DNA of 64,000 nt, taken from Podarcis melisellensis (lineage: Eukaryota). The stretch lies in the NCBI GenBank assembly GCA_964234715.1, contig OZ174282.1. One strand, given 5' to 3'. This document shows positions 293 through 56,869 of this stretch, piece by piece (within the stretch, counting starts at the first letter, position 1; every line of letters starts with the position of its first letter). The notes below the pieces were generated by a model, which was given only the letters and a program-made list of their open reading frames with translations, searched no databases and was not told where the DNA came from. A program made the translations under genes and the position numbers.

Positions 293-616
293 GTGAGACT
301 GCTTTTTTCCCAGGGGTGGAGGTGCCAGAAGGGGGATAAACTGAGAAAACTGGGTGAAGGAGAAGTATGGAAAGGCTGTTCTCCTAACATGCAGCCAGTG
401 TCTCCAAACATGTACAGAGTGCTTTTTGTCTATATCTGTTGCTTCTGTGCAACCTGTTTGTAAGTAGCCTGAGGTGCTAGCCCTCCACTTTTATATGTTT
501 GATGCCTTAAACACTTGAATTAAAAAATGTTCTTTGGCATTTGCTTTGAAACAGCTTGGATGCTGAGTGTTTTATCTCTTCCCCTCACCAGTCCCAATTT
601 TTATTCTTTTAAACAG

Positions 617-760
617 AGCATGTCTCCTGAGCAGCTGATGACTTTATGTGAAGCCGGTATTCAGAATACCAATGTTAGTGTCCGAGTAAACGTGGTTAGC
701 ATTCTAGGAATTGCTGGCAGTGTGCTGGCCAAGGTGGAAGACACAGCAGAAACACTAAAG
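617..760 (+). CDS. HEATR3: HEATR3 coding exon
   Basis: aaacag acceptor, aag|gtaaaa donor, 144 nt; [14 protein letters not shown]...AETLK, HEAT/ARM-like helices. Confidence 0.92.
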
Positions 761-865
761 GTAAAACTTCTGTATGGAAATACCTATCTCTCACTTCTGG
801 CAATGACATTACTGCTTGTAAGATCTGTAGTGATTTTTGGGGTACCTGTTTCTGTGTCATTTCAG

Positions 866-1042
866 ATGATTGGGAAATTCCTCCTTGACGTTGCAACGAA
901 GGATCCTTCCCTTGTGGTGGTGGGGGAAGCTCTGGATGCCCTCTTTGATGTGTTCGCTGACGGTAAAGAAGCCGAAAAGGCAGGAGAGCAAATAAAGTTG
1001 TTATATGCACTTAAGGAATTCCAGCCAGTTTTCAAATCGCGG
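866..1042 (+). CDS. HEATR3: HEATR3 penultimate coding exon
   Basis: tttcag acceptor, cgg|gtaagc donor, 177 nt; [33 protein letters not shown]...FKSR. Confidence 0.93.
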
Positions 1043-1830
1043 GTAAGCCTATTTTATTCACTGTGAGAGGGAAGTACTTGAAACACTAATAGGGTTTGTG
1101 ACTTCACTAATGCCACCAGTTGGGAAAACTTTTCTTTACCGCAGTTGCATCCAAGATTCATATTGAATACCTAAAAAAAAAAATTCTTGTTGAGGGAAAA
1201 AAAGGGGAGAGCAAGTTTCTAGTCCTCATTGGTTCAATAATATGTCTCCAAAGATGGAGGCAAGTGAATGTTAGAATGCTAGTGGTGAGAAAGGAAGGTG
1301 TTTGGTTTCCCCCCTTCTCTTTTTGTTGAGCCCTGTCTGTCGTCATAGACATGACCCCAGCTCGGTGTCGGCATCTCATGAGAGCCGTTCTTTGGGTCTG
1401 TCCTTCTTCAGTGTCATGTTGCTGTTAAGACAAGCTTGCCTAGCTTTGCTCAGATAATGTGTGTGCTTCTGTCACAGCTGAACAGAGTTTAGTAAATATG
1501 ACCAGATGGTTTTTATTAGGTCAGGCCAGTGCTAGCTGTTTGGAATCTCGGAGAATTTGGCTTTTTGTGGGGATTAAATTTTAGGTTTTGAGGGGTTAAT
1601 GCAAAGGCATCGTCTGAGAAATAATTGCAGTGCTGTACCTGCCAGCCCCAGAGAACATGTTGCTCTGGAACACAAGGAAGGAGCTTGTCTGCCAGCCTGG
1701 GAGACAGATGCTGCTTAGTCATTTCCTAGTTTGCCGAGTCAAAGTGTACTAGTGTGGGTTCTCCAAGGAGGAGAAAGGACTAAGGGGTTGAGTGCACACC
1801 TATGTGTTCATCACTGGGGCGGGGGGTGTC

Positions 1831-11769: not shown

Positions 11770-13850
<2,081 letters not shown>

Positions 13851-16966: not shown

Positions 16967-17955
16967 TCTATCAGCTCATCGCTACTGTCTCTAGGCATAG
17001 CAGCCCCCAGATGCCAAGCTGTAACTACAGTCTGTCCATTCATACATCACATCATATCATAGTTCAGCTCTTTTTCTGGGGTGGATGCAAGGAAGAGATT
17101 GGAAGTTTTGCTTAGTTAACTGTGTTCTATTATTTATTTTATGTATTCAGGGGTATTTATACCCCACCTGCTAACCAAAGTTCTTGAGGGGCCTAAGCTC
17201 AGAATGTGGTTTGTTTCAACTGTGGTTGGGAAACAAGCCAGGATCATAAGCCACATTTTGAATTTGGCTTGTTTCCCAAATAATACTTCAGACTAACCAT
17301 GCAAATAGAAATGAAAGCTTTTGGTCATGCCAGAGGGTAGAGCTAACAAGCCCAAGGGTCATGCACATAACTCTAAGCCATAGTTGAACATTACGTCCAA
17401 ATGCAACCACAGTTGGGCATTGGGTGTTGAGAAAGCATAGGAAATAGTGTGTGCTACTCAGATGCATTGACCTGTGAGGTAAACTATGGTAATATTGTGC
17501 TCTGTAGTCGCAGTCAGAATAAGGCTGCATAAAAAAAACAACCTCAAGATAATCATCACCTCAGATTAGTAATCATTGCTCAAAGCAGATCTCATGTTCT
17601 TTCATTTTGGCAACTCCTATGTTGACCTAAGTGTTATAATGATGATCATTTAAAATGTAATCCTAACAAAAATATGATTATATTTATAATTTTATTATTT
17701 GTTAATACTCACTACATCTTCAAACCTTTGCGGATAGCTTTTGGATCTCAGAAAACTGGTCAGTATAATACTTGTGGACAAAATCTTCTGATGTTTTTGT
17801 TATGGTTGTAGAGAGCCTTGTAGGCCATCTATTCAAACTCCCTGTTCATTGCAGGAAATCAGAGCGTGAACATTCTGTATGGCAGAACCCACCATTCTCT
17901 CATGGGTTTCAGTGTTGAAATGTTCCAACTGTTGTGTGTATGTCCTAAACGCTAG

Positions 17956-18722
17956 TGTCACGGCCACCCCGGACTGGTCCCAGCTCACAAGAGACCTCAC
18001 TCCGTTGCAGCTTATTTACAGGAAAACTTTATTGAAGATTTCTGCTTCTCATACAGCTCAGCATTGTGGCCGTACGTCTGCCACGTTAGACCGCTGAAGT
18101 CCCCTCTGACTCCTCCCCTCTTCCGCACCAACTTAATAGCCTGGCTCTAGACCACCTCTTCCTCTCCTTTCTTTTCCGCAGGGTCTTCCTGCCCCCCTGG
18201 GTTCCCTCTCTCCGTGACTCGCCTGAGGCTGAATCCTCTGCCGCCTCTTCCCCCCTCTTTCTGGCTTTAGGGCCGGGCTCCTCCCCTGAGCTCTCTCCAC
18301 TTCCGCGCGCCTCTACGTTTGAACTTGGCGCGCGTACGTTGCTGCTGACCTTTCTTTCGACCGCTACACCACCCCCTGCTCTGCTCTCCACCCTTTCCGG
18401 CTGAACACCCTGCTGCAACCCCCTCTCTCTGTTCTCTCCTAATCCTGCTCCCTCCGAGAGACTGACGACTCCACCCCCTTTTCTCCGTTCCGGCTGAGAC
18501 GTCTCTTGCTTCCTCTGTCTTCCACTGGGCTCCTCTCCGCTTCTCCCTTCTCCTCCCCTTTGCTTGATTAAGGTAACCCCCTTTTGAGAATCCTCTGACT
18601 CGCTGCTCAGACTCGTGGATTCCCTCAGAATTCCATCATCTTCTTCCTCATCCTTCTGCCCCTCCTCCCACTCGCTCTCCGTCTCCTCTGTCATCTCCTC
18701 CTCTCTCCCAGAAACCCTGACA
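17956..18722 (-). repeat. 3' LTR of the retrotransposon
   Basis: direct repeat of 23683-24449; preceded on - strand by the polypurine tract; AATAAA on - strand at 18028-18033. Confidence 0.96.
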
Positions 18723-21700
18723 TCCATCCCCCCCTCGAAGCCCCCCCTTCCCCCCTCCCGCTCGCCGGGGACCGGTCGTGGAAACTGCGGCTCTTCGGGG
18801 GTAGGCTCAGGATACAGGTCGTCTACGTCAATGTTCTCTGCTGGCAGTTCTGTGTAAGTGTATTCGAAGTCGGGTTCTTCCCCCAAATGCTTCTCAGTCT
18901 CTGCTTCCATCGCTACTTCCTCCGGTGCTGCCCGCCAAGGACCTATCAGCCACCTCTTACGCCATTCCTCCTCTGGCTGCTCCTCCCACCAATAAGGGGT
19001 TTCCGTGTCCACCCCCGAGCACGATCCCCTGGGCGGGCTTGATTCTGGTGTTCTTTCCTCGGGGGAAGAGAAACCCCTGAACGTGCTATCTGACAATGTG
19101 GGTGTGAAAAGCCAGTCATCAAAGTACTCAGCTGGCATGGGTCTATGTGGGAAAAGCGCATGGAACTCTTCTTTCAAAAGGGGTTCGTCTAACTCGTAGC
19201 CTGGCACCCAACTATTAGCAGCGGCTGGTGTGCCCTCCCTGGCGAGAAAATATTCAACTCCCTCCTCCCCCCATCTCGAGTCCAGTATCTCTGTGACCTC
19301 GTTAAGAGGTCCTGGTCTTGGCGATTCCCCCCTCTCAGGCGCCCTCCTACGTGGCTCTGGGGGTGCTCCTGACTCTTGAAACCTGTGTGGGGTTTTGTAG
19401 GGAGTGAGCACCGACCTATGAAAGACCGGGTGCACCCTGGAACCTTCCGGAAGGGCTAGACGAAAAGCCACCGGATTGATCTTAGCCTCAACTTGATATG
19501 GCCCTAGCTGCCTGTGTCCTAACTTCTTCTTGGCCAATGACCTGGCCGGCATCGCGTGGGCTGCTAACCACACCCAGTCCCCAACCTGGATGTCCTCTCC
19601 CGCCCTCCTGTGCTTATCGGCCTGCACCTTATACGCCTGTTTTGCCAGCTCCAAATGTCTCCGCAGCTCCTCGTGCACCTCTTGCAACTCCGCTGCAAAC
19701 TGGTCGGCATCTTGAGGCCCCCCCCCTCCTGGTGCCGCAAATCTCGGGAAGGTTCTGGGATGACGGCCATTGTTCGCGAAGAAAGGCGTCACCCCGGTGG
19801 AAGCGTGTTTCGTGTTGTTGTAGGCGAATTCAGCCATCGGCAGATAGTCCACCCACGCCGCAGGTCGCTGGTTGGCGTAGCACCGCAGGTACTGCTGCAT
19901 GATCGCGTTGACCCTCTCCGCTTGACCGTTGGTTTGTGGATGCCTCGCCGATGTCAGGTTGATTTTGACGTGCAAGATGCCCAGAAGCTTTCGCCAGAAA
20001 GTGGAAACAAACTGGCGCCCCCTGTCGGACAAGACGGACTGCGGAAGTCCATGCACTCTGAAGACATGATCGATGAAGAGCTTTGCGGTCTGTTCTGCCG
20101 TCGCCACCTTGGCACAAGGGATGAAGTGCGCCATCTTGGTGAACAAGTCCACCACCACTAACACCGCCGTCTTACCTCTGGAGCTGGGCAGGTCTGTAAC
20201 AAAGTCCAACGCTACCCTCTCCCATGGTTGCTGCGGTGTCTCCAGCGGTTCTAGCAATCCCGCCTGCTTCTGGTGCACTGGTTTGGACCTCTGGCAGATA
20301 TCACACCTGGCGACGTAGTCCGCCACCTCTCCTCTCATCTGGGGCCACCAAAAGTCTCTAGCCACCAACTCCATCGTCTTCTCTTTGCCGAAATGGCCTG
20401 CACTAGGGGCGTCATGCAACTGTTGCAGAACCTTGGCTCGAAGATCGTCGGTGGGCACGTAAAGGGCACCCTTACGAGTCAAAAGTCCATCTTGTAATTG
20501 AAACTCATCGTTGTGTCGCGACCCTCCGCGTAGCTCCTCCATCTTAGACTGCGCAAACTGATCCCTTTGCAACGCGCGTCGCACCGCGTCCAGGTCGACT
20601 GCGATGGTAGCGCACGTCCACGCCTGCGGTGCGAAAATGTGCTTTGCTGCGATTGGAGCTGCTTCCTCCAAGTATTGCGGCTTTCGGGACAGCGCGTCTG
20701 CAATAACATTGGAGTCTCCTGGGATGTATTCTATTTTGAAGTCGAAGTCCGCAAAGAACTCCGCCCAGCGCATGTGTCGCTGGGTCTGCAACTTAGCCGT
20801 CCGCCAATACTCTAAGTTCTTGTGATCCGTGCGGACCTGCACCGTGTGCTTGGCTCCTATTAAGAAGTGTCGCCACGCCTTGAAAGCTGCATGAATGGCC
20901 AACAACTCCCTGTCCCATATGGTATAATTGCGCTCCGCCTTGCTGAGCTTCCGGGAGTAGAACGCACCCGGTCGCCAGTTGCCTTGTGAATCCTCTTGCA
21001 AAAGAACGGCCCCAACCGCTCTATCTGACGCATCGGTCTCTACCCGCATGGGTCTGCCGGGATTCACGTGGAGCAGCTGCTCTTCGGAGGCGAAAAGACC
21101 TTTAAGCGTCCGGAAGGACCGCTCCGCTTGTTCGGTCCAGACGAACTTCTTCTTCTTGGAACTGAGGGTGTCAGTGATCGCCGCCGTCGCGTTCGCAAAA
21201 CCTTTAATAAACTTGCGGTAAAAATTGGCAAAGCCGATGAACCTCTGGACCTCTTTCCGATTTCGAGGGCTTTTCCAGTCCAACAGCGCTTGAACCTTAG
21301 CCCTGTCCATGGCCAGTCCCTCGTCGGACAACTTGTAGCCAAGGAAATCAACCTCTCTGACATCAAACTGGCACTTTTCCAACTTGGCGTACAGCCTGTG
21401 TTCCTTCAGCCTCTGCAGGACCTCCCTCACGTCCTTATCGTGATCCTCCGGCGATTCCGAGAAAATCAGGATATCGTCGAGAAAGCAGACACACTTTTTG
21501 TAGAGGAGACCTGCTAGCACGTGGTGCATAAATGCTTGAAAAACGTGGCTGCCATTTTGGAGGCCGAAAGGCATGACTCTGTATTCGTATGTGCCCAGAG
21601 GGGTGAACATGGCGGTCTTCCACTCATCTCCTTTCCGGATGCGGATGAGATTGTAAGCTCCACGTAGGTCCAGCTTGGTGAAAATCTTGCCCCTCCTGAC

Positions 21701-22600
21701 GGTCGCTAAAAGGTCGTCAATCTTGGGCATGGGGAAAGCTTTGGGCTTAGTCAAGCTGTTGATGAACCTGTAATCCACTATAAGCCTTTTTTGGGGCGTG
21801 TCCTTCTTCTTCACAAAGAAAACAGGGCTGCCTCCCGCTGCTTTAGATTCCTGGATGAAACCGCGCTTGAGGTTATGGTCTATGAACTCCCGAAGCTCTT
21901 GCATTTCGTCCTCCGACATGGAGTACAGCTTGGCAGCAGGCAATTGCGCCCCTGGCACTAAATCAATCGCGCAGTCGTAAGGTCTATGAGGCGGCAACTT
22001 GTCAGCTTCCTTCTCACAGAAAACCTCCAAGAATTCCTGGTACTTGTGAGGCACTGTTTGCACCATACCCAGATGCAATGGCTGCTCAGCTTCTCCTCCC
22101 TGATCGGTCTGAAAGCAATGCTGAGCACAATACGATGAACAAAAGTTGATCTGCCTCTGGTACCACGCAACCGCGGGACTGTGCCTCTCCAGCCAACTCA
22201 TGCCTAACACGATGGGTGTGTCCGATAAGTGGGTGACATTGAAACTAATAAGCTCTCGATGGTTGCCAATCTGCATCATCATGGGAGGGGTTTGCTGCAC
22301 CACTTGCCCCCCCAGCAACTTCCTGCCGTCCACCGTGACCACGTTCAGAGGCGTCGTTGCAGGCAGGAGCGCCATGTTGTGCTGCTTAACGAACTGCAGT
22401 CCCATGAAGTCGGCGTTGCTTCCCGAATCGATCGTTATTGGAACCTCGAGGAGTCTCCCATCAGGCAACTGGAGTGTTGCTGTGAGCAGAACTGCCGGTT
22501 TGGGAGGCAAAGGGTCCACGCTCTGCAGTGATGCTGGGGGCTTGTCTACAGATCCGCCTGGCTGAGCCCCAGTAGCTCTGCTTCCAGCCAGGCACTGTCG
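18086..22600 (-). CDS. pol: Pol polyprotein (aspartic protease, RT, RNase H, integrase, chromodomain-like domain, long charged tail), expressed as Gag-Pol via -1 frameshift
   Basis: IDSGS protease; LDLRGAY, MPFGL, FLDDILI RT; ETDASD/DRELLAI/TDHKNL/ADALSR RNase H; HDAPSAGH..CDIC and D,D,E integrase; GPY motif; EVTEILDSR..EYF..NSWVP chromo-like; no internal stops. Confidence 0.95.
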   Translation of the reverse strand, partial: RQCLAGSRATGAQPGGSVDKPPASLQSVDPLPPKPAVLLTATLQLPDGRLLEVPITIDSGSNADFMGLQFVKQHNMALLPATTPLNVVTVDGRKLLGGQVVQQTPPMMMQIGNHRELISFNVTHLSDTPIVLGMSWLERHSPAVAWYQRQINFCSSYCAQHCFQTDQGGEAEQPLHLGMVQTVPHKYQEFLEVFCEKEADKLPPHRPYDCAIDLVPGAQLPAAKLYSMSEDEMQELREFIDHNLKRGFIQESKAAGGSPVFFVKKKDTPQKRLIVDYRFINSLTKPKAFPMPKIDDLLATVRRGKIFTKLDLRGAYNLIRIRKGDEWKTAMFTPLGTYEYRVMPFGLQNGSHVFQAFMHHVLAGLLYKKCVCFLDDILIFSESPEDHDKDVREVLQRLKEHRLYAKLEKCQFDVREVDFLGYKLSDEGLAMDRAKVQALLDWKSPRNRKEVQRFIGFANFYRKFIKGFANATAAITDTLSSKKKKFVWTEQAERSFRTLKGLFASEEQLLHVNPGRPMRVETDASDRAVGAVLLQEDSQGNWRPGAFYSRKLSKAERNYTIWDRELLAIHAAFKAWRHFLIGAKHTVQVRTDHKNLEYWRTAKLQTQRHMRWAEFFADFDFKIEYIPGDSNVIADALSRKPQYLEEAAPIAAKHIFAPQAWTCATIAVDLDAVRRALQRDQFAQSKMEELRGGSRHNDEFQLQDGLLTRKGALYVPTDDLRAKVLQQLHDAPSAGHFGKEKTMELVARDFWWPQMRGEVADYVARCDICQRSKPVHQKQAGLLEPLETPQQPWERVALDFVTDLPSSRGKTAVLVVVDLFTKMAHFIPCAKVATAEQTAKLFIDHVFRVHGLPQSVLSDRGRQFVSTFWRKLLGILHVKINLTSARHPQTNGQAERVNAIMQQYLRCYANQRPAAWVDYLPMAEFAYNNTKHASTGVTPFFANNGRHPRTFPRFAAPGGGGPQDADQFAAELQEVHEELRRHLELAKQAYKVQADKHRRAGEDIQVGDWVWLAAHAMPARSLAKKKLGHRQLGPYQVEAKINPVAFRLALPEGSRVHPVFHRSVLTPYKTPHRFQESGAPPEPRRRAPERGESPRPGPLNEVTEILDSRWGEEGVEYFLAREGTPAAANSWVPGYELDEPLLKEEFHALFPHRPMPAEYFDDWLFTPTLSDSTFRGFSSPEERTPESSPPRGSCSGVDTETPYWWEEQPEEEWRKRWLIGPWRAAPEEVAMEAETEKHLGEEPDFEYTYTELPAENIDVDDLYPEPTPEEPQFPRPVPGEREGGRGGFEGGMDVRVSGREEEMTEETESEWEEGQKDEEEDDGILRESTSLSSESEDSQKGVTLIKQRGGEGRSGEEPSGRQRKQETSQPERRKGGGVVSLSEGAGLGENRERGLQQGVQPERVESRAGGGVAVERKVSSNVRAPSSNVEARGSGESSGEEPGPKARKRGEEAAEDSASGESRREGTQGGRKTLRKRKERKRWSRARLLSWCGRGEESEGTSAV
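18723..18736 (-). other. polypurine tract (PPT, plus-strand primer)
   Basis: GAGGGGGGGATGGA on - strand abutting the TG of the 3' LTR. Confidence 0.9.
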
Positions 22601-22606
22601 TTTCCC
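22534..22606 (-). promoter_or_regulatory. programmed -1 ribosomal frameshift signal (slippery heptamer plus stem/pseudoknot)
   Basis: G GGA AAC at 22606-22600 in gag frame; 6-nt spacer; 9-bp stem GCCTGGCTG/CAGCCAGGC; pol is the -1 frame. Confidence 0.85.
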
Positions 22607-23622
22607 TGAAGCTGCTCCCCTGGTTGCACCTCTGCTGTTACAGTTGCCAGCGCTGCAGTGTGCTTCTGGAGCCTCTGGGGGCACTCTTTCGCCATATGGT
22701 GCGCACTGTCACAGATGTAACACTTCCTGGTTCCTCTAGGAGGCTTCGCTTTGGCTGCACCAGGGACAGGGCTCTGGGATGGCTTCTGAGCCCTAGCACC
22801 ACCAATCTCCATTGGCTCCTCTCTGTCCTTCCCCATTGGCGAGGGGTGCGCACGGCTGAAGTCCCTGTGCACAAAAGGGAGAGTCCTTGCTTGCGCACGC
22901 GCTTGGGGCCCGTCCTCCTCGTGCCACGGACGCCCCTCATGTCGAATTCCAAGAGCTAAAGCCCGTTGCACCACGTCTTCTAGGGTCTGGGGTCTGTCCC
23001 CCCTAGCGATCTCATCCTTGATGGGGGGGCTCAATCCCTCCCAAAAAAGATCTCTGACCGGTTTACTGTCCTTTGGCCAATCTAAGGCGGTGAGCAATGC
23101 AAAAAATTTAGAGTGGTATTGGCGCACAGTCGCTTTCCCCTGCCTCAGCCCGTGCATTTGACGGCGCGCAATGTCCACATCCACAGAGGATTGAAAACAA
23201 GAATCCATCGCTTTGATGAACGCAGTTGAATCGCGACGGGCCGGTCCATCTTCGCGCCACAAATTGCGTAGCCAAGCCCTGGCCTCCCCATGCAGGTGCG
23301 AAACAATGAACCCCACTCTCTCCTCCTCATCTTTAAAATCGTGACGGAGTAAGTGCAGTGCATATACAACGTCCGCTCTGAAATTGGGATAGTCTTGCAA
23401 GTTGCCATTAAAATGCGGAACTAGGGCACCCCCCCTCCGTCCAAGCGCAATGCCCTCCGCTCTGGATCCTGGGGCCCCCGCCTTGTCCGCGCGCTCCCAC
23501 CTTGCCTGCAAATCCTGGCACGTCTTCTCCAAGTCGTCATTCTTCTTCTGCGAAGCAATGACTGCCGATGTGAGAGCGGTAACCTGATTCCGCAATGCAA
23601 CCAGCTGCTCCTCAGCGCTCAT
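22546..23622 (-). CDS. gag: Gag (coiled coil, capsid, CCHC zinc knuckle), 358 aa
   Basis: GCAGCCATG start at 23622; LRQG..TV..Y...F capsid motif, EPMEIG, CYICDSAHHMAKEC knuckle; sushi/PEG10-like layout. Confidence 0.93.
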   Translation of the reverse strand: MSAEEQLVALRNQVTALTSAVIASQKKNDDLEKTCQDLQARWERADKAGAPGSRAEGIALGRRGGALVPHFNGNLQDYPNFRADVVYALHLLRHDFKDEEERVGFIVSHLHGEARAWLRNLWREDGPARRDSTAFIKAMDSCFQSSVDVDIARRQMHGLRQGKATVRQYHSKFFALLTALDWPKDSKPVRDLFWEGLSPPIKDEIARGDRPQTLEDVVQRALALGIRHEGRPWHEEDGPQARAQARTLPFVHRDFSRAHPSPMGKDREEPMEIGGARAQKPSQSPVPGAAKAKPPRGTRKCYICDSAHHMAKECPQRLQKHTAALATVTAEVQPGEQLQGNDSAWLEAELLGLSQADL

Positions 23623-23669: not shown

Positions 23670-23680
23670 AGAGGGGACTT
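23670..23680 (-). other. self-priming primer-binding site (PBS)
   Basis: AAGTCCCCTCT, 2 nt downstream of the 5' LTR; lacks the TGG start of tRNA PBSs; exact complement of AGAGGGGACTT at 23834-23824 in the LTR. Confidence 0.85.
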
Positions 23681-23682
23681 AC

Positions 23683-24449
23683 TGTCACGGCCACCCCGGA
23701 CTGGTCCCAGCTCACAAGAGACCTCACTCCGTTGCAGCTTATTTACAGGAAAACTTTATTGAAGATTTCTGCTTCTCATACAGCTCAGCATTGTGGCCGT
23801 ACGTCTGCCACGTTAGACCGCTGAAGTCCCCTCTGACTCCTCCCCTCTTCCGCACCAACTTAATAGCCTGGCTCTAGACCACCTCTTCCTCTCCTTCCTT
23901 TTCCGCAGGGTCTTCCTGCCCCCCTGGGTTCCCTCTCTCCGTGACTCGCCTGAGGCTGAATCCTCTGCCGCCTCTTCCCCCCTCTTTCTGGCTTTAGGGC
24001 CGGGCTCCTCCCCTGAGCTCTCTCCACTTCCGCGCGCCTCTACGTTTGAACTTGGCGCGCGTACGTTGCTGCTGACCTTTCTTTCGACCGCTACACCACC
24101 CCCTGCTCTGCTCTCCACCCTTTCCGGCTGAACACCCTGCTGCAACCCCCTCTCTCTGTTCTCTCCTAATCCTGCTCCCTCCGAGAGACTGACGACTCCA
24201 CCCCCTTTTCTCCGTTCCGGCTGAGACGTCTCTTGCTTCCTCTGTCTTCCACTGGGCTCCTCTCCGCTTCTCCCTTCTCCTCCCCTTTGCTTGATTAAGG
24301 TAACCCCCTTTTGAGAATCCTCTGACTCGCTGCTCAGACTCGTGGATTCCCTCAGAATTCCATCATCTTCTTCCTCATCCTTCTGCCCCTCCTCCCACTC
24401 GCTCTCCGTCTCCTCTGTCATCTCCTCCTCTCTCCCAGAAACCCTGACA
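23683..24449 (-). repeat. 5' LTR of the retrotransposon (promoter copy)
   Basis: direct repeat of 17956-18722; on - strand TATTAA at 23865-23860, predicted start near 23834, AATAAA at 23760-23755. Confidence 0.96.
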
Positions 24450-24598
24450 GCTAGTTTATCACATAGTTATTTATTCTTACAGCACCTTGTTTCCCTAATA
24501 ACCTGTCTATTTTGCAAAAATAAATTGCTTTCATGGTGTAGCATTATAGATACAGTGCATAATTACCCACTGCTCTGGCCAGCACTCTGATCCCATTA

Positions 24599-24771
24599 CA
24601 GTTACAGATGCTTCAGGTTACAGACTTCACTAACCCAGAAATAGTGCCTCAGGTTAAGAACTTTGCTTCAGGATGAGAAAAGAAATTGTGTGGTGGCGCC
24701 ACGGTGACATTAGCTTCAGGTTAAGAACGGACCTCCAGAACGAATTAAGTTCTTAACCCGAGGTACCACTA
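24599..24771 (+). mobile_element. internally deleted copy of Tc1/mariner (pogo/Tigger-like) MITE family A
   Basis: homologous to 30921-31146; left TIR and middle partly deleted. Confidence 0.75.
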
Positions 24772-25042
24772 TATATCTTTCCTGACTGCAATGTTACAAG
24801 ATGCTAGCAGTTCTGGCTACTTAACCTTTTAGCTTGCTTTGAGTAGTATTAGTATATTCTGCTAGTGGTGCTCATCCAGTTTCAAGCTTTGGTTAAAGAA
24901 CAGTCTTACATTGGGTCAGGCCATTGATCCATCTAGTCAAATGCTGCATGCCTTGACAGCAGTAGATCTCCAGCATTATGGGTATAGAATTATTCTATAC
25001 GCCCTGAGACCCCCAGGTATAGGGCGGTATATAAATTCAATT

Positions 25043-25075
25043 GATGATGATGATGATGATAATAATAATAATAAT
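25043..25075. repeat. compound (GAT)n(AAT)n microsatellite
   Basis: gatgatgatgatgatgataataataataataat, at the tail of a short LINE/SINE 3' fragment. Confidence 0.85.
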
Positions 25076-25229
25076 AGGTTTTGCTCTGCTATCTCAGATC
25101 CTTTTAAGTAGCAAGATCAGAGATGGAAATTTGGACTTCACACATGTGAAGCATGTTGTACCCCCTCCCATTGAATCAAAACCATTTCCTACCTGTACTG
25201 TTTCTCAAGCTGATCAGCACTACCACTTA

Positions 25230-25455
25230 CAGTGGCACCTTGGGTTAAGTACTTAATTTGTTCCGGAGGTCCGTACTTAACCTGAAACTGTTCTTAACCT
25301 GAAGCACCACTTTAGCTAATGGGGCCTCCTGCTGTTGCCGTACCACTGGAGCACTATTTCTGTTCTCATCCTGAAGTAAAGTTCTTAATCTGAAGCACTA
25401 TTTCTGGGTTAGCGGAGTCTGTAACCTGAAGCGTATGTAACCCGAGGTACCACTG
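25230..25455 (-). mobile_element. Tc1/mariner (pogo/Tigger-like) MITE family A
   Basis: TA|CAGTGG...CCACTG|TA, 226 bp, reverse-complement copy of 30921-31146. Confidence 0.88.
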
Positions 25456-45452: not shown

Positions 45453-45635
<183 letters not shown>

Positions 45636-47366
45636 TAAATATTTCTATGTCTGCTTGATGATTGGGATGTTCCTCCCCCCCCAAAAAAATTCCACAACTA
45701 GAAAATGTAAGCCCTAGAATGAAAAATATGTAAATGAGGCAAATATGAACAATTTCAACCTCAGTTGATATTAAGGTTATGATTTGTTGTGCACTTATTC
45801 TCAGACTCAGTGTGTTAGGAGCATATTAGAAGAAAGAACAAATTCCTGTACTGAATGGAATATCACTGGAGATTGGAAGCTCCAGCAGCCAAAGTTTAGC
45901 AGCAAGACTGATGCCTGGTGTTTTTGTGTACTAGGGGTTGTGGGTCCGCAAATCACCCCTTACATTCCATTTCACCACTTGCATGCAGCAGTTGCCTTCA
46001 ACTGCATAGAAGGAAAGGGAGCAAAGGTAAAGGGAAGAGAGATAGATATGCCCCAAAATAATTGTAAAACAAACAAGCTGCTGAATTTTGGCTATGATGA
46101 GCTTTGGGTTTTATTCTGTAGCTGCATAAATTCTGTGACTTAAGTGATTTGCAAAAGAGTAACATGTAAGCAAAACTTGAGGGACTGTTTAATATGTCCT
46201 TTACATAAGGTAGTAAAAGCATGCTCTGAAAGCTGGTTGAAAAATTCATTTAGTTGCTTACTGGCTTAACAGACAAGCCATCTTCACTGGCAGTAAGAGC
46301 ACCTGTACAAAACCTGCCTGCCCCTTCCCTCTACTCATTCCTAAATCCATACTTTTCCTGTTAACTTGATCCAGTCATACTTGCCGTCCACATCTGGACT
46401 GAAATGAAAACACTGCAGTCTTATATTCCATAGAAATATTTCCTGTGGCTGCACAATTCATAGAAAGCTCTTGAACCCTGCCTCCTTTTTAGGGAAGAGG
46501 ATTTCTTTCTTTCTTTCAGGAGTTTGCGTACACTCGGTGTGTTTAAGAAAAAAGATAAAACAGGATCGATGGCATTAAGCAAGCATTTATTAAAACTATG
46601 CCTTTATTTATAGAAGCCAGCAATTGTGTCATTTGCTCTATTGCTCCAGGGAATGTGCTTAGACGGAAACATTCCTAGTAAGTGAGAACTGTTCTTGGCA
46701 TCAGCTGGGCTCCACCATAAGAGTGGCTGAGAGAGGCTTTAATTATCCTGGGGTTGGGACGACAGCACAGCTGACATGAAGAGGAAACATGTTAGATTGG
46801 TTTTGAAAAAGAAAGTAAACCTTGTTAAAAAGAACAAACAGTACACCATCGCATTTTAAAACTCTAAATTGTCCTTAGCATGACGCCATGCAGTTTCCTG
46901 CATAGGAAGCCTGGCGCATGCTTACAAACACTGTTATTAAATGTGGGGTGGCTAGGAGGGTGTGCACATGCCAAGAATCTTTCGGCATCTATCACAGTGA
47001 CTCTCCCATGTCCACCAAGGAGCCTTGGATAAGGAGCACAGCTAGAGTTATGCCTGGATTTGCATCACAGAGTCCTCATAACTTAAAGGGCTTTCTAATC
47101 TCTGCACACTAGTATTTACACTAAGTCCAGGATCAGTCTTATCACTGATCGTTTCTATATAGCTGGTTCCATTGAAAGAGAGTTTCAATTATAAGGTGAC
47201 CCAGGGTCCTCAAAGCTGAGCAGAATTAGCTCTCTCAGATAAAACCTTGTGTTGTTTTGACCACATTGACTTCACATTGTGTATTGCGTAATTACGATAA
47301 GAGTGTGTGAAAGTTCAGTACAGGAAAACCTGCTGGAGGAAAGGGTTTGGCCTCTGAAAACTGATC

Positions 47367-47578
47367 GGAGGAGCCATAGCTCAGTGGTTCAGGTCATGTT
47401 TTGCATGGAGGAGGCCTGTGGTTCAAACCTTGATGTCTTCAGTAGCAAGAATCTCATAGAAGATAAAAGATTTCTCATTGCCTAAAATCCAAGAGAGCCA
47501 CTGCCAGTCAGAATAGACAATCTTGAGCTAGATGGGCAAATAATTCTGGCCTAGTAAAAGGCGGCTTCCTATGCCTCT
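47367..47578 (+). mobile_element. old tRNA-derived SINE with CR1-like tail
   Basis: A box tagctcagtgg, B-box-like ggttcaaacc, tail ...aaggcggcttcctatg. Confidence 0.6.
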
Positions 47579-48079
47579 AAAGATATTGGCTTGCAGGGCA
47601 AAGGGAGAGCTACCTGGGGGAGTTGTGCAAGATGGGTGGATCCTGGCTTGCTTTGTCTGTTTCAGTAGAAGGAAGCTTCATAAGTTGATTTGGCAAATAC
47701 TGTGCTCCTTCTTAAAAACAAAGGTTGAATACGCTTTACAAATCCTGCGGGAAAGGGGTGGGACATACGACTGGCTATTTGGATCCCGAAAACCACTGGG
47801 TTCAAAATAATCCTGAAGGTCACTTCAGGTTCTGCAGAAAAACTTGTGTGCTGCTGCGGCCTTCCCCAAAGAGCACATCTTGTCGATTTAAATTGTAGTT
47901 TGGAGAACCTGCAGTTACTGTGATTTGTTTGTGCTGGAGCTGTTTTCACACTGTGTGTGTGTGTGTGTAGTGACTGTGTTTTCTCTGTTCTGCACAGCTC
48001 AGCATGATGACGACACAAAATGTCTAGTTAGCCAATCTGTTTGAAGAGAGCTGTTAAATTATGGCACGTGAAGGATATA

Positions 48080-48871
48080 CAGTGGTGCCTCACAAGACGA
48101 AATTAAAGTCTTTTCGTCTTGCGAGTTTTTTGTCTTGCGAAGCACGGTTTCCCATAGGAATGCATTGAAAATCAATCAATGCGTTCCTATGGAAACCGCC
48201 TTCAGACCAGGTCCGGGGACAGTCTGTCCCCCGACCTCTTCTGAAGGCTGGCGGGGGGCGAAAGTCTTTGCTCCCCCCCCCCGCCTGCCTTCCCGGGACA
48301 GCGGAGACTTCTCCACTGTCCCGGGGCGATCTTAAAAAGCTGAAGGGCGGCAGCGAACCCTTCGCTGCCGTCCCCCAGCATTTTAAAAGCCCCTGGGACA
48401 GCGGAGACTTCTCCGCTGTCCCGGGGCGATTTAAAAGTCCCCGGGAAGGCAGGCAGGGGGGAGCATAGACTTTTGCCCCCCGCCGGCCTTCAGAAGAGGT
48501 CCAGGACCTCTTCTGAAGGCCGGCGGGGGGCGAAAGTCTTTGCTCCCCCCCGCCTGCCTTCAAAAGCCGTCCGGGATAGCGGGAAGCGCTTCCCTGCTAT
48601 CCCGGACTACTTTTAAAATGCTGGTGGTGGGGAGCAAAGCCTTTCGGCCCCGCCAGCCTTCCTGGACCTCTTCTGAAGGCCAGAGGGGAGTGAAAGGCTT
48701 TGCTCCCCACTGCCATTTAAAAGAGGTCCCTGGAGATTTCCCTATGGGCTTTCTTCTTGCGAAGCAAGCCCATAGGGAAATTCGTCTTGCAGAACAACTC
48801 AAAAAACGAAAAACTCTTTCGTCTTGCGAGTTTTTCGTTTTGCGAGGCGTTCGTCTTGCGGGGCACCACTG
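48080..48871. mobile_element. non-autonomous Tc1/mariner (pogo/Tigger-like) element with nested internal palindromes
   Basis: TIR cagtggtgcctcacaagacgaa/ttcgtcttgcggggcaccactg (20 of 22), TA flanks, no transposase ORF. Confidence 0.85.
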
Positions 48872-49838
48872 TAATTGGAATTCATAATTTTCTTACAAAT
48901 AGATGGCATTAGGTACATTGTAGAAGGCTGGCATAACCTGATCAGACTATTTGCCTACCTCAGTTTTGTCAATTGTTGGTGGCACCAGGTGCCAGCTCTC
49001 AGGCATCTGATATTTTTATTTAATTGAACCTGGAACTTCCTTCATGCAAAGCAGATGCTCTCACTGAGCTTTGGCTTCTTCCCATTTGTCCAGTCGGGGG
49101 GGGGGGATGGATAAAGCAATGCTCATCTCATTTTCCAAGTGTGGTTGAGAGCTGACCCCATCTATTCTATCTAAAGCAGTATCATACCAGTTTAAACCAA
49201 ATAATCCAGGGATATGTAGTTTGATAAAGGCACTGAGAATTGTTAGGTGACACGGTCACCTTCCAAGAGTCCCAGTTCTCAGAGTGATTTAACAACCAGT
49301 GACTCTTCCCAAGGAAATTGAGGGAATTGGAGCGCGAGCAGCTCGTGGCACCTTCACCCAACCACAGTTCCAAGGATTGTGAGGCAAGCAATGAGTGTTT
49401 AAAGTGCTATGATGCTGCTTTAAATGTATAGTGCAGATGGGGCCATAAACAGAAACTAGGTTTTGAGTTGTAAAGGCACCAAAAGGAGCAGTTTATTTCC
49501 CCCTCCACTTTCAATTATTTTTGTAAGGGTTTGTAAGTTTTAAAAATTGAGTATAGTGTCACTGTTCTCAATCATTACAATTCAAGTGGTATTTGGAATA
49601 TAACAGTTATCTAGTTTTGAAATAATTTTGTTAAAGTGCCTACTTAACAACATTACTTTTTAGAATTGGCAATTAGCTGCTATGGTGTTGAATATTCAGA
49701 GTTCAAACTCATGTCCTATATTATTCTTCAAGCTTTTCCAAAGTCTGCCAGTTGAGGGCAGCACATTCAATGTTAATTTTTTTCTCCATATGTTTTTGGT
49801 GAAGGATTTTAACTTCCTACTTGCATGTTTTTTTCCAG

Positions 49839-49885
49839 GTACAGATATTTGGAAGTTTTAAGACTGGTTTATATTTACCTACTAG
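49839..49885 (+). CDS. TENT4B: TENT4B exon 3
   Basis: ttccag acceptor, ag|gttag donor; VQIFGSFKTGLYLPT(S), first half of the nucleotidyltransferase motif. Confidence 0.96.
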
Positions 49886-51468
49886 GTTAGTACTCTTTAA
49901 TTTCCCCTTATTCTTACACTGAATATCACATTTTTCCTTCCCTGCTTATATTTAACTTGTAAGTCATACTGAAATTGCATAACAGCTGTTTTGATGTTAT
50001 GGAGATGAAAAGTTATATAATTTCACCGGAAAGCAAATTTGAAGTTCAAGGGAGTCAAAGTCGCTGTCAACATCACTTTCCCTTTACTGACCTGGCTGTT
50101 GACAGAAGATAGTCCTGCACATTTATAAATTATTGTTTCTAATTATGTATTTCCAACCTTTACCAGTGGAAATCTGGCCAATGTGACTTGCAAGTACAGT
50201 CAGAATACAATAATAAAACCGCAGTAAGATTTATTGAAGCTCATCAGAATCCAGGGGAGGAGAGTCTAGCTGGAGCAGACACCCAGTTTATCTTTTGTCT
50301 AGTCCCCTCAATCTCCTGTTCATTTCAGCAGGACATTTTGTGATCCTGTGGAGAGGAGAAGGGGCAGTCTACTTGGAGTAGGCATTGGTTGGTATATTTG
50401 CATGCCTCCCTTACTGTCTCTCACTCCTTTCCACAGGGCAGCTTGTGTCAGGCAATGCCCTGAGTAGACACTTCAGAGACAGCTGCTTGAACTGTCATTT
50501 AGTATTTGACCTAGATGATGCTGTGTAATAAAATACCTACCTGCTTACCCACCTGGCCACCTACTGTGTTCTAACACCAGGCTGGTGATGCATTTAAGCT
50601 GGAGGATTAACTGATTTATCGATGCTTCTAACCCACATTTCAACCGTAAAACTCCTTGGGGCGGTTTAAAGTTAAAAATCACAATAATAATAAATTCCAA
50701 AAACAAACAATGACAGCGGTGTCAGAAAAGAATCGACACAGGGTAGAAGTAGCAAAATGAAACCATTAAAAGCTATGGATGTGAGTTAAAAGCTCAAGTA
50801 GGTAGGATGTACCCAGCCTGGTATTTTAATGGTAACAGTGAAGGCTCCAGGCAAAGTTCCCGTGGAGGGAATTTCCAAAGATGGGAAGCTGCCATAGAAA
50901 GGTCCCTTTCCTGCAGTTGATACTTGCTTTATATCTGAAGACAGGGGAATTTGGAGAATGACCCCAGAAGGTTCACTTGGGTAATGATGGCATTTCAGGT
51001 ACTTGCTCCCAGATTCTGTAGAATGGCACAGGGGGTGGGTTATCTATGTTGGAGCTATTTGTGTCATGTTGTACCTTTGCTGTAGTTATGATTTTGTACA
51101 TTCCCCTGCACATTTAGTTATATCGCCTCTGTGGCTGTGTTCAGGGAGTCATACTGTGTTTCCCGCCCCACCCTATCTTGGATCCTGCAGCTGAGAAACA
51201 CTCTGTTCCTACAGATTTCATTGTAACCTGTGAGCTGGGAGATATTTGCCTGAGAGACTTGGGGACTTCAGAGCCATAAGCCACCAAACTGCCAGGGATA
51301 TTAGTTTGTATATTAGGAGGTGGCCATAGAGTGCCGTTTCTCGAACTCTCACTGCCAAGAAAAGTGTTTTGAGTCACTTCTGTTCACTTCAGAAATACAT
51401 GGCTTGAACAGGATTTTAGACCCCTGCCCTAGAAAAGCTTTGTATCAAATTTAATCACAGTTCTATGA

Positions 51469-51780
<312 letters not shown>

Positions 51781-52751
51781 TGAAAGTTGCAAGCCGAATC
51801 AGTAAATTATTGTTGATTGCTGTTGCTTTTTAAATTATCTGTATCTATTAGAAGTGGGTCCTCACACATGCAAATAAGCCCAAAAGATTGAGGAAGGGGC
51901 AATAGAGTAAGAATGGGCTTGGTAAGGAAGGTTCTCTTCCTCAGCAAAACAACTATGGGGGAGGCTGAAGAACACAAACCATGAATCTTTTTCATGGGCA
52001 CAGTTACTGCAAATGTTGCCAGTGTGACAATTTGCAGTATCCTTTTAAAAGAAGCCTTCCTTGCTTTATTACTGTTCTTGCGCCAGAATCCAGAGAACCA
52101 CACAACTGGTTGTGCATGCCGAAAGGAGCTTTGGGTTTGCATTTCCCAACAAACACATCATTCTGTACAGCAGAAGGACTGCCAAAACCAGTTTGGGAAC
52201 ACCGCATTGGGGGTTGTTGTCATTGGTGGTCTGCAGTTCAATGAAAAGTCTGGTTTCAAAGGGCATCCTCAAGCCTCTGGTCACAAGTTTTGTTACATTC
52301 TGGTCTCAGTAGACAGCCAAATAAGCTAGACTTTAAACAATTTTTAGAGACGAATTTCAGATCCTTGATGTACTTTAGCGCTATGAATTTGAGTCTAGTT
52401 GCTATTGCTTTTTTCAATGGTATTTCCTCGAATCCTTACATGTGAATTCAGCTCCTGATGATAAAGCCACATTTTCTTTCTGAAGTAACATGAGAAGCAC
52501 CTCTGGGATGTGAATGGCTTGCTTCTTATGTCAGGCCTTACGTGAAGAATAGCTTTATTCTGTGGCCTCCTATCTCCCCCTGCTGCCTGTTCATGACTGA
52601 AAAGCAACTGCTTTGTGACTGGAGTACTATTGCATTCCTCTATGGTTGTATAAAGGACCTCTTGTATGTAGCAAAAGGCTGAGCTCTGTGAAGATTGTTT
52701 TGTTTTAATTTTAAGTGTGTGCTGTCCTTGTCTAACACTAAGCATATATGA

Positions 52752-52916
<165 letters not shown>

Positions 52917-54099
52917 TGATACATGGAAACATGGGTTGGATCTAGACACATCAAAGAAGTGTTTCAGTAAAACGCATTGCAAACTTTGTATGAGAAATTG
53001 GGTGAGCAAAAACAGAACTCCATAGCGCCTTCTGGTGTCATAGTGTTAGAATGCATAAACAATGCATATAAAGTGCTTTTTTTTGCCAGTGTAGCTGAGG
53101 CCATGGCTAAGCTTCAAGAGGTGTAGGCAACAGGAGATTTGAGGCATGTTCTTGAAAATTCATGTTGTTTCTCCTCTCTCTGTTTCTTAAGAAAATACAT
53201 TGTATTTCTGATGGTCTCCATATGTTGTTGGACTCCTTTCCCCCCCCCCCATCCTCAGCAAGCCTGGCCAGTGGTTGGCATAGATGAAACTGTGCAGTCC
53301 AATAAAATCTGGAGAGCATCAGGTTGGAGAAAGATGCTGCTAGAAAACCTCATCGCAGCCATGTTTAAAAGAGTGAAAACAATGAAACAATTGAGAGGGG
53401 GCAGAGCATTTATATAGGGTATCTCCAATGGTAGATTTGCTCCAGTAGAAGCTCTTGCAATCTGCCTGCCTTTCTCCAGGCCTTCCTACATCATATTGTC
53501 TCCCAAAAGCTTCTCCTGATTGTTTGAGAGCTCTCTGGTACAGTGCGATCTGTATTCTGGTGAAAAAGAAGCCTTAAAATGGGAAATGGACTTAATCAGA
53601 GCCTGTGAGAAGTTGTATAGAAGGGATGGTGGTCCTGGGGTCAGGCCTGGCCTACCCATGAGGCGGGGTGAAGCAGCCACCTCAGGCGGCAAAAGCTCAA
53701 GCAGTTGCCCTAACCCTAACCCTAACCCATCCACCCCAGCCTTTTTGCTGCAACCGGAACACACACACCCCTGCACAGTTTTGGGAAGAGGGAGGCGTCC
53801 TGGTGCATGACATTGCTGCTTGTCTTCCCCACCCCTGGGAAACACCCCCCATCTCAATGAGTTTTGGTAAGAGGGGGGCATTCTGACAGCAGAAGAAGTG
53901 CTGGGATGGGCGGGGTGGCAGCAGCAGGGGGCAGGAGGTGGCACATTACTGTTTCGCCTCAGGTGGCGAAACGGGACGGGCAGTGCTGCAACTACAACCA
54001 AGTTGAACCTGCCTGCATGCCAAGGCTATTCACAAAAGAATAGAAATGGAAGTGTTAGGTTTTTGTTTGCCGAAGTGGTCCTTAGCACTCTGGGGCCTG

Positions 54100-54515
54100 T
54101 AAGAAGGGTAGTAGAGTCCTACGAGAGGGGCCGGTAGGGCTTGTCAGCCTGGGAAGGTAGCCCATCTAGGAGAAGGACAACTCTGATCCTAAACCTCCAC
54201 TGCCTTGTGGGATATCTTTGGGAGAAGAAAATGCTAAGGAGTAGACCCTACACAAATCTGGAGTAGAGTCCCTAAGATGTTTGAATGGCGCCTTCCAGCA
54301 ACACATGCAGCTAAGCTGGTGCCAAATGTATTGCTCTGCTTTCATTTGGACCACATCAGCGAGGCTGAGAGGGGCTTCTTATCATCTGGGCTGCCTGGTA
54401 CCTCCTGGTACACACTGCTCAAGCTTGCGTCCTGGGGAGGTCACTCCGGTGCCGCTAACACAGAGGTTTGACTTCAACCCCGGAGGCACACTCCATTGTC
54501 TCCCAAGACAGAACA
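54100..54515 (+). mobile_element. probable RTE-clade LINE 5' UTR-derived fragment
   Basis: motif gggaaggtagcccatctaggagaaggacaactctga resembles RTE 5' UTRs as I recall them; not database-checked. Confidence 0.4.
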
Positions 54516-55104
54516 CCTGACCCTGAATGGTGTTGCTTCTTGTTTTTAATTATTATATCACTAGATGGCACCAGAGGATATGTGTGGATCTGTCTGTGTC
54601 TCTCCCCAGTTAAAGTAGACTTTTTGAGCAGTCTTCCAGGTTATATTATTATTTATTACCAAATTTGATTGTACAATTAATCAAACCGTTTGGTATCTCG
54701 TACTATTTCCAGTGTAGAAAGCTCTTATACTTTTAGCGTTGGATGAGTTTCCAGAGGAGTTTTGTTTGTTATTAGACAGACAACCAACAGGTTGTACATT
54801 TTATGGTGTCTCTGAGAGTGCCTGTAAGGTGGCTTAGGGCAATAAGTATGAAGGCTGATTTCACATTTTGTTAGCAAACTGGAAATTAAAGTTCAGTATG
54901 AGAAGGAATCTAGAAAAGGAACCATACAGGCTTGTCCACTAGTCATGCTAGTCTATTATCTGTTGTTTCAGCAAGTAGCAAATCAGCAAATAAATTGGCA
55001 GGCCTCTGGCAAGGTATGAGTACTTTGAACACCACTGAGTGACAGTTCACCTCTTAAGCTGTCAATATCTGCTGAGATCACAGACCCATATTCTTTGTGG
55101 AATA

Positions 55105-55521
<417 letters not shown>

Positions 55522-56638: not shown

Positions 56639-56869
<231 letters not shown>

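Follow-up and report, generated by a model that had tools for sequence, protein, structure and literature searches.

Coding sequence within the U3 region of an LTR is familiar from HIV nef and MMTV sag, which are separate genes expressed from spliced RNAs and not extensions of pol. Pol frames that run into the 3' LTR have been published for plant chromoviruses. In CRM group A, a plant clade primed by tRNA-Met, an LTR-coded CR motif replaces the chromodomain (PMC3059260). In the beet elements Bingo1-4 and Bingo7, the chromodomain lies upstream of the polypurine tract (PPT) and the ORF reaches into the flanking LTR; the accessible part of that source makes no mention of extension length, selection or a motif (PMC3605345). 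Tf1/sushi elements of fungi and fish have a chromodomain, self-priming and an AATAAA near the LTR end, and the sushi U3 is described as T-rich (PMC6317226, PMC3601003). Ty1 integrase has a long disordered tail with an NLS and a short host-factor motif that sets targeting. Ty1 has the copia order, however, its tail is not LTR-coded, and the partner is AC40 of Pol III (PMC8487063, PMC7459421). HIV integrase binds LEDGF through a structured surface (PMC10854676). TND-interacting motifs (TIMs) of host proteins such as IWS1, MLL1, JPO2 and JIL-1 are disordered and consist of a short helix with a hydrophobic anchor, an acidic or phosphorylatable (Ser/Thr) linker of 8-16 residues, and FxGF, a special mark of LEDGF and HRP2 partners (PMC9987994, 10.1101/624023).

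The locus described here lies on the minus strand of a 64,000-nt stretch of Podarcis melisellensis DNA, hereafter the window. The element resembles CRM group A in the layout of pol running into the 3' LTR, and is not a member of it. Unlike CRM, it keeps a chromodomain before the PPT, is self-primed and has its relatives in Podarcis; its extension spans the entire U3 as far as the start site, and its best conserved motif precedes the PPT. The chromodomain before the PPT and the ORF entering the LTR are shared with the plant Bingo elements. The nef and sag genes, which an earlier note on this DNA had named as precedents, share coding within U3 and are not the closest ones, because read-through of pol into the LTR is published for plant chromoviruses. 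The phenomenon is known from those plant elements, and the vertebrate variant with an FxGF motif is new. The paper listings and abstract starts searched contained no report of such a read-through in squamates and none of a TIM on a retroelement integrase.

A self-primed chromovirus with a coding LTR

The element is a self-primed Tf1/sushi-type chromovirus (Ty3/gypsy) that has spread recently. Gag is followed by the PR-RT-RH-IN order of Tf1/sushi chromoviruses, and Pfam matches in pol comprise protease, RT, RNase H, integrase, SH3 and a weak Chromo. The LTRs, both bounded by TG..CA, differ at one position (18170, AGA/AGG, synonymous). The heptamer GGGAAAC presumably directs frameshifting, given its XXXYYYZ form. 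In an integrase tree of 17 rows, the 12 tail-bearing rows form one clade (support 99/98); the tree contains no named Tf1 or sushi-ichi sequence, and the position of this clade relative to the fish and other outgroup rows is ambiguous, with long branches meeting.

Features of the element and its flanks in the window
Feature	Position	Strand	Remarks
Target-site duplication	17951..17955; 24450-24454		5 bp, two copies
3' LTR	17956..18722	-	767 bp, 634 nt coding
AATAAA	18028..18033	-	Predicted polyadenylation signal
pol frame	18086..22708	-	1540 codons stop to stop; PR-RT-RH-IN-SH3-chromodomain-tail
LTR-coded 3' block	18089..18355	-	Basic NLS-like run 18190-18152; L-L-x-W 18139-18128; omega 0.16-0.40
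Self-primer / predicted transcription start	18097..18107	-	Inside last codons
LTR-coded Gly/Ser linker	18356..18580	-	Frame retained; omega 0.4-1.4 in 10/11 pairs, residues mostly near neutral
LTR-coded acidic Ser-rich block	18581..18721	-	CK2-type sites by pattern; omega 0.15-0.31
PPT	18723..18736	-	Read as codons E-G-G-M-D
Trp-rich acidic segment	18947..18994	-	Predicted helix; aligns with helix of second TIM-like motif in families B and C
TIM-like motif	19055..19138	-	Predicted helix with F at its end; Ser/Thr linker of 8 residues; FRGF at 19081-19070; acidic residues follow
Chromodomain	19154..19303	-	Family A has substitutions at each of the three aromatics of the methyl-lysine cage; omega 0.02-0.11 between families
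gag	22546..23622	-	Ty3 capsid, zinc knuckle
Heptamer GGGAAAC	22600..22606	-	Predicted -1 frameshift site in gag/pol overlap
11-nt site adjoining 5' LTR	23670..23680	-	From primer/PBS comparison and folding
5' LTR	23683..24449	-	767 bp; repeats the 211 codons ahead of the predicted transcription start

As the earlier note had proposed, the pol frame stays open past the chromodomain and through the PPT into the 3' LTR. The resulting tail of 350 residues comprises 139 codons up to the LTR edge and 211 inside the LTR. It ends at a TAA (18088-18086) just within the predicted R region, and the AATAAA follows 52 nt further on. Chance is an unlikely source of this opening: the LTR-coded part was stop-free in 2 of 20,000 sequences shuffled by base and 15 of 5,000 shuffled by dinucleotide (P 0.003), the whole tail stayed open in none of 5,000, and the other two frames of the LTR-coded part hold 8 and 4 stops. 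In contrast to the U3 described for sushi, that of the lizard element is T-poor (13%, 102/765 nt) and coding. An AlphaFold model is folded only in the chromodomain and two short helices. Together with the omega values below, it bears out the suggestion of an integrase extension, which is real, selected and mostly disordered, with a basic NLS-like end.

Priming is by the element itself and not by a tRNA. The 11-nt match between self-primer and PBS co-varies in families A1, A2, A3 and B, and the primer folds onto the PBS (z -3.0). Its position within codons was correctly described; its start precedes the end of the stop codon by 22 nt in the tested A families and by 25 nt in family B. The reading of a TATA box as codons held in part. 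The L-x-W-C codons over the TATA-like hexamer (18138-18133) are kept, although the hexamer itself is not conserved in A2 and A3, and a conserved TATA box was rejected.

Retention of the frame and selection on the tail

The full frame is intact in 36 of the 39 near-identical copies fetched. Of the other three, one is frameshifted in the integrase region, one has an internal deletion and one is truncated; none of these defects interrupts the tail. Read-through of the PPT also occurs in families A2, A3, A4, B and C of the same genome and in Podarcis UniRef proteins, and in all families read the tail continues the integrase frame without a break. The LTR-coded length is 205-218 codons in family A, the window's own, and 100 in family B, and G-G-x-x-D-V-R is kept at the PPT in families A, B and C. 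LTRs with just 56-59% identity share this open frame; at that identity, nucleotide gap counts for the window LTR against A2/A3 proved unreliable and were discarded. Among seven A2/A3 LTRs, the sole indel in the coding part is 12 nt long, whereas the 125 nt beyond the stop carry indels of 1-2 nt. In sequencing archives, three DNA-type runs of other organisms yield contigs that span the tail, and the variants listed for them are few and truncated, too sparse for a selection test. No RNA run was listed among the runs searched for the element, and no relative was found in the phage records or metagenome contigs searched. The ESM Atlas yielded chromodomain clusters alone, at 0.80, and the family B tail gave no usable match there.

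MG94 estimates of omega for the LTR-coded part are 0.27-0.37 in all 11 pairs tested, which share branches (P 2e-4 to 6e-8). The window/L074 linker omega (0.15) and one window/L078 motif estimate were saturated and left out. In the LTR-coded part of the gap-free pair L074/L078, changes by codon position number 23/21/59 (P 5e-7), or 19/17/45 without CpG sites. Read in the pol frame, this pair has 43 synonymous and 44 non-synonymous codons; for the two shifted frames the numbers are 9/72 and 15/61. These substitution patterns indicate purifying selection on the LTR-coded part between families, except for a near-neutral middle linker. Across the tail, the constraint falls on three blocks, the FxGF motif, the acidic block and the basic end, with a loose linker between. 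That the tail is coding sequence under selection is nearly certain. Among young copies the tail looks neutral, with 4 synonymous and 17 non-synonymous changes, in a sample chosen for likeness in the tail region and with variants that are mostly singletons. A further count of 3 synonymous and 8 non-synonymous changes among young copies gives no sign of selection by itself. The synonymous difference between the two LTRs, which the earlier note had called consistent with a coding LTR, is without weight. Three older LTRs met by chance share 5 synonymous and 9 non-synonymous changes.

A degenerate chromodomain followed by an FxGF motif

The Pfam Chromo match (residues 1137-1183, E 0.06) falls under the curated cut-off. 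The folded chromodomain model nevertheless matches HP1/CBX chromodomains, and sister families carry PF00385. The aromatics of its methyl-lysine cage are lost, whereas the fish relatives identified retain the Y/W/Y cage, and their tails are short and basic and contain no FxGF. Some fish proteins seem, at the protein level, to extend a few dozen residues beyond PPT-like codons.

The most conserved motif of the tail, FxGF, lies before the PPT and outside the LTR and was absent from the earlier account. Its omega (0.05-0.11, window family versus A4/A2) makes it as conserved as the chromodomain. All 17 tails of the lineage contain the pattern F-x(8-16)-FxGF (each shuffle P <=0.022); these tails are related and hence not independent. 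Three of these tails have it twice, and three more have an L/MxGF and FxGF pair; it occurs in neither of two parsed fish relatives. Only 2 of 121 parsed proteins (145 new library matches) have FxGF after the chromodomain, both from Podarcis members of the lineage. All 11 aligned instances, a set chosen for the motif, share FxGF unchanged, and in distant families the motif is doubled and acidic.

The predicted helix (model residues 58-65) ends at the conserved upstream Phe, in keeping with the TIM definition, and pLDDT is below 50 over residues 66-89 in a model from seven sequences, which places the motif in a disordered region. The linker of 8-10 residues combines acidic residues with Ser/Thr in families B and C and in the more distant rows; that of family A is Ser/Thr/Pro-rich with 0-1 acid, and the window's own family has one motif, not two, which counts against the TIM reading. 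At the sequence level, the predicted helix, the linker length and the FxGF directly after the chromodomain fit the published pattern of TIMs that bind LEDGF or HRP2. Known TIMs belong to host proteins, unlike this integrase motif. Profile searches of the PDB with the 11 instances and a family B stretch matched no known TIM chain and only ARL2, by chance. LEDGF-family genes are present in the same genome on C17 and C18, and both LEDGF/p75 and HRP2 are encoded.

Possible roles of the tail

On balance, we favor a reading in which the conserved tail of 350 residues stays on integrase as a disordered motif arm for nuclear entry and chromatin tethering. The narrower statement that it is a motif arm attached to integrase is the more probable of the two; LEDGF or HRP2 as the partner of FxGF is rather less likely than not. 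Gag-Pol would be made from genomic RNA by a -1 frameshift. This RNA would contain the whole 3' U3, so that the tail would be made one-to-one with integrase; the codon copy in the 5' LTR precedes the start site and would be silent. The helix-linker-FxGF stretch is predicted to mimic host TND-interacting motifs and to bind the integrase-binding domain of LEDGF/p75 or HRP2, probably after Ser/Thr phosphorylation. It would thereby take over from the degenerate chromodomain cage, and the basic run would serve as a nuclear import signal.

The distribution of insertions bears on this reading. With strand skew as a proxy for transcribed DNA, insertions showed no gene-body bias: |skew| exceeded 0.08 in 7/36 family A1 flanks, 9/40 family B flanks and 7/41 random stretches (3 of 120 stretches were dropped as fully masked), in a test that is weak because just 2 of 5 known intron controls passed. 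The window family is dispersed, without a centromeric concentration of the CRM kind. Insertions less than 1.5 Mb from a chromosome end or on unplaced contigs make up 37/56 in A3, 3/40 in the window family and 8/150 in family B (P 4e-9). Only the sister family A3 occupies the terminal arrays.

It is unlikely that the tail acts apart from integrase, as a trans activator, anti-silencing factor or TND decoy that the element's protease releases or that is translated from a spliced RNA or one with a host start. The acidic blocks with scattered aromatics and the basic run look activator-like, in-frame ATGs stand at the PPT and close to the LTR start, and the absent gene-body bias fits a non-targeting role. 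However, the frame is joined to integrase in every family read, the PPT ATG is missing in families B and C and the LTR-internal ATG in A3, and the predicted transcription start lies downstream of the LTR-coded part. No result points to the separate accessory protein that had been suggested as an option.

Slightly less probable is an integrase arm whose FxGF binds another partner, such as a different TND protein or a heterochromatin or telomere factor, with insertion preference set by family-specific tail parts, a role that the CR motif has in plant CRM. The lack of gene-body bias and the concentration of A3 at chromosome ends and unplaced contigs are in its favor. A3 carries the same FxGF motif yet sits in satellite or TTAGGG-mixed arrays (15/18 readable flanks, picked from such places), a location that simple LEDGF tethering would not predict. 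However, some A3 copies share flanks and are thus array duplicates, the pattern could also come from differences between chromodomains or from survival in arrays, and FxGF marks LEDGF and HRP2 partners specially (PMC9987994).

It is improbable that the frame is open for RNA reasons, a short 3' UTR protecting against nonsense-mediated decay, with residues of little weight. The stop close to the AATAAA, at a fixed place just past the start site in families A and B, and the near-neutral middle third fit such a cause. Amino-acid selection is instead indicated by omega, which is about 0.2 for two of the LTR blocks and close to 0.1 over the motif, and most ribosomes would in any case terminate at gag, 4.5 kb further upstream. 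The third-position excess largely refutes an RNA cause alone; a contribution may remain. That the frame is a by-product of the T-poor, purine-rich U3 and promoter constraint is hardly credible: base composition and the young copies without a selection signal agree with it, but the shuffles, the stops in both other frames, the frame kept in strongly diverged LTRs, the between-family omega and a third-position excess that DNA constraint does not give refute it.

For the integrase-attached arm, the picture that may emerge, still short of an even chance, is of a vertebrate chromovirus in which cage decay is accompanied by TND-mimicking motifs on a U3-overprinting tail that dock on LEDGF/p75 or HRP2, and in which family-specific LTR-coded parts steer some families to telomeric or satellite arrays. 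The sister families in different genomic niches provide a natural comparison. A vertebrate LTR can be both a promoter and a selected coding sequence across the whole U3. As a result of this coding, thousands of LTR copies are shaped by codons and LTR divergence in the lineage is not neutral, which bears on dating and annotation. If FxGF binds LEDGF or HRP2, a retroelement would be using the short-motif code of its host to get to a chromatin reader that lentiviruses contact through another surface. The motif would then also offer a peptide-sized, directly testable account of the way in which chromoviruses locate chromatin when their chromodomain is degenerate.

The pol frame through the 3' LTR

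The element lies on the minus strand, and sequence and fold matches place protease, RT, RNase H, integrase, SH3 and a diverged chromodomain in its open pol frame. The earlier note had described this frame as continuing without a stop from the chromodomain through the polypurine tract (PPT) into the 3' LTR, and the frame is indeed open throughout. The tail that follows the chromodomain is 350 residues long; 139 of its codons precede the boundary of the 3' LTR and the other 211 fall within this 767-bp LTR. Chance does not readily explain this opening. With 5,000 dinucleotide shuffles for each, a stop-free sequence arose 15 times for the LTR part and never for the whole tail. Read in its two remaining frames, the LTR part has 8 and 4 stops. 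The LTRs differ at one site, which is synonymous, and a 5-bp duplication is present on both sides of the element.

The last codons of pol include a stretch of 11 nt that is complementary to bases lying behind the 5' LTR. The two partners co-vary across four families, which is the mark of self-priming. By analogy with Tf1, this stretch would also be the start of transcription, so that the pol frame would span all of U3 and stop about 7 codons into R. The distance from the pol stop to AATAAA is 52 nt. A TATA-like hexamer had also been read as codons; the L-x-W-C codons are kept, but the hexamer itself differs between families. All A families (A1 is that of the window) retain a stretch with GCGCGCC and TTCAAA beneath the codons R-A-P-S-S-N. 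It resembles E2F and CHR boxes and might serve as promoter and coding sequence alike. The window copy is inserted antisense in a first intron, about 4.2 kb from exon 1.

Features of the window and their positions
Feature	Position	Strand	Remark
SYO1-like TPR exon	524-1063		
Host gene exons	12928-13717; 45477-56869	+	presumably TENT4/PAPD5, from their appearance
3' LTR	17956-18722	-	
pol stop (TAA)	18088-18086	-	
GCGCGCC and TTCAAA	18339-18314	-	
Open pol frame	22708-18086	-	
5' LTR	23683-24449	-	
90-nt inverted repeats, 661 nt apart	24601-25441		beside 5' LTR; a probable non-autonomous DNA transposon

Selection on the LTR-coded part

A DNA search of the genome returned 2,181 candidates for the window family, and the 40 scored were all 99-100% alike. 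The whole frame is intact in 36 of the 39 other copies fetched; the remaining three carry a frameshift in the integrase region, an internal deletion and a truncation. A perfect 5-bp duplication flanks every copy with both ends found (37/37). Since the 39 were chosen by likeness in the tail, they show a recent spread of tail-bearing elements and are not evidence of selection. Selection is not visible in their LTR-part variants (3 synonymous, 8 non-synonymous); the enzyme core of the same copies has 67 synonymous and 41 non-synonymous variants.

It is the sister families, not the young copies, that settle the coding question. In Podarcis muralis, proteins that are 41-80% alike over the tail region likewise continue past the PPT and end in a basic run and L-L-x-W. 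Searching the genome with them identified families A2, A3, A4, B and a decayed C. The LTR-coded length is 205-218 codons in A2, A3 and A4, and 100 codons in B. Pairwise codon models between families put omega at 0.06-0.14 over RT-integrase. For the LTR part it is 0.27-0.37, with neutrality rejected in every one of the 11 pairs, although the pairs share history. The cleanest comparison is between loci L074 and L078, gap-free over 209 codons, which differ by 23/21/59 changes at codon positions 1/2/3 (P 5e-7), and by 19/17/45 when CpG sites are removed. Shifted frames show no third-position excess and contain stops. The sole indel in the coding LTR of A2/A3 is 12 nt, while the short part after the stop has single-base indels. 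These results show that a recently active lineage of vertebrate chromoviruses carries a real, selected, protein-coding LTR.

Selection is uneven across the LTR part. The acidic and the basic 3' blocks each have an omega of about 0.2, compared with mostly 0.6-1.4 in the Gly/Ser middle. In A, B, C and the distant protein relative P0192, the last 30 residues contain a basic run and then L-L-x-W (or V-L-x-W, L-L-C-W), an end retained although LTR lengths vary almost twofold among families. Family B is also young, because it has many identical full-length copies. In one B 3' LTR (L085), 408 bp long, 100 codons are coding and no AATAAA follows the stop.

An FxGF motif behind the chromodomain

A motif overlooked in the earlier note lies directly behind the chromodomain, where a predicted helix ending in Phe is followed by an 8-residue Ser/Thr linker and FRGF. 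Its omega (0.05-0.11) is comparable to that of the chromodomain. Every one of the 17 lineage tails contains F-x(8-16)-FxGF, which was not found in the tails of the fish relatives. Families B and C and the rows at greater distance carry the motif in tandem, and their linkers are acidic but otherwise vary freely in sequence. In a search of 1.8 billion proteins, FxGF stands behind the chromodomain in 2 of 121 parsed chromodomain proteins, both Podarcis lineage members. In the family A chromodomain, each of the three aromatic cage residues is replaced, and the third is missing in all 12 tail-bearing rows; fish rows keep the cage residues.

Judged by its sequence, the motif fits the pattern published for TND-interacting motifs (TIMs), in which a helix is followed by a linker of 8-16 residues that is acidic or phosphorylated, and then by FxGF (PMC9987994). 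FxGF is described there as typical of LEDGF and HRP2 partners, and JIL-1 is an example (PMC9987994; 10.1101/624023). The LEDGF and HRP2 genes are both present in this genome. A -1 frameshift at GGGAAAC would yield Gag-Pol, so that each integrase would carry the tail. The tail probably acts as a disordered integrase arm, as in Ty1 (PMC8487063, PMC7459421), in which a TIM-like tether would be followed by a phosphorylatable acidic block, a free linker and, at the end, a nuclear import signal.

The tether function of the FxGF motif is a prediction, and its mimicry of LEDGF/HRP2 partners is a tentative reading that we favor somewhat less than its negation. Several results count against a tether. 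Profile search found no likeness to known PDB TIM chains, and the linker of the window's own family is non-acidic. Transcribed-looking flanks are not in excess (A1 7/36, B 9/40, random 7/41), in a test that only 2 of 5 intron controls pass, even though the window copy is itself intronic. Family A3, which has the same motif, sits in terminal satellite and telomeric arrays. The motif may thus act in capturing chromatin or in stability instead of gene-body targeting, or may bind another partner.

A3 (e.g. L078, L101-L120) is young, and 37 of its 56 hits are at chromosome ends or on unplaced contigs. Satellites of the 250-500 bp type or TTAGGG-mixed arrays surround it in 15 of 18 readable flanks, which were picked from such places and in some cases are shared. 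Among vertebrates, A3 may be a counterpart of elements that seek out centromeres or telomeres. On contig C19, older A2, A4 and C copies accumulate, in many cases as sets of identical copies, a pattern expected of a chromosome that does not recombine or is duplicated.

Relation to known elements

The layout is not new in kind, because pol continues into the 3' LTR of every plant CRM group A element (PMC3059260) and of beet Bingo1-4 and 7 (PMC3605345). The window element is not a CRM member, since it retains a chromodomain, is self-primed and has an animal host. The features compared, other than its tree position, agree with those of Tf1/sushi elements. The relatives with names are all from Podarcis. 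Searches of openly accessible literature returned no report of such read-through in squamates or of a TIM on a retrotransposon integrase. Here, a known layout gains a conserved, host-like FxGF motif whose predicted role is cheap to test.
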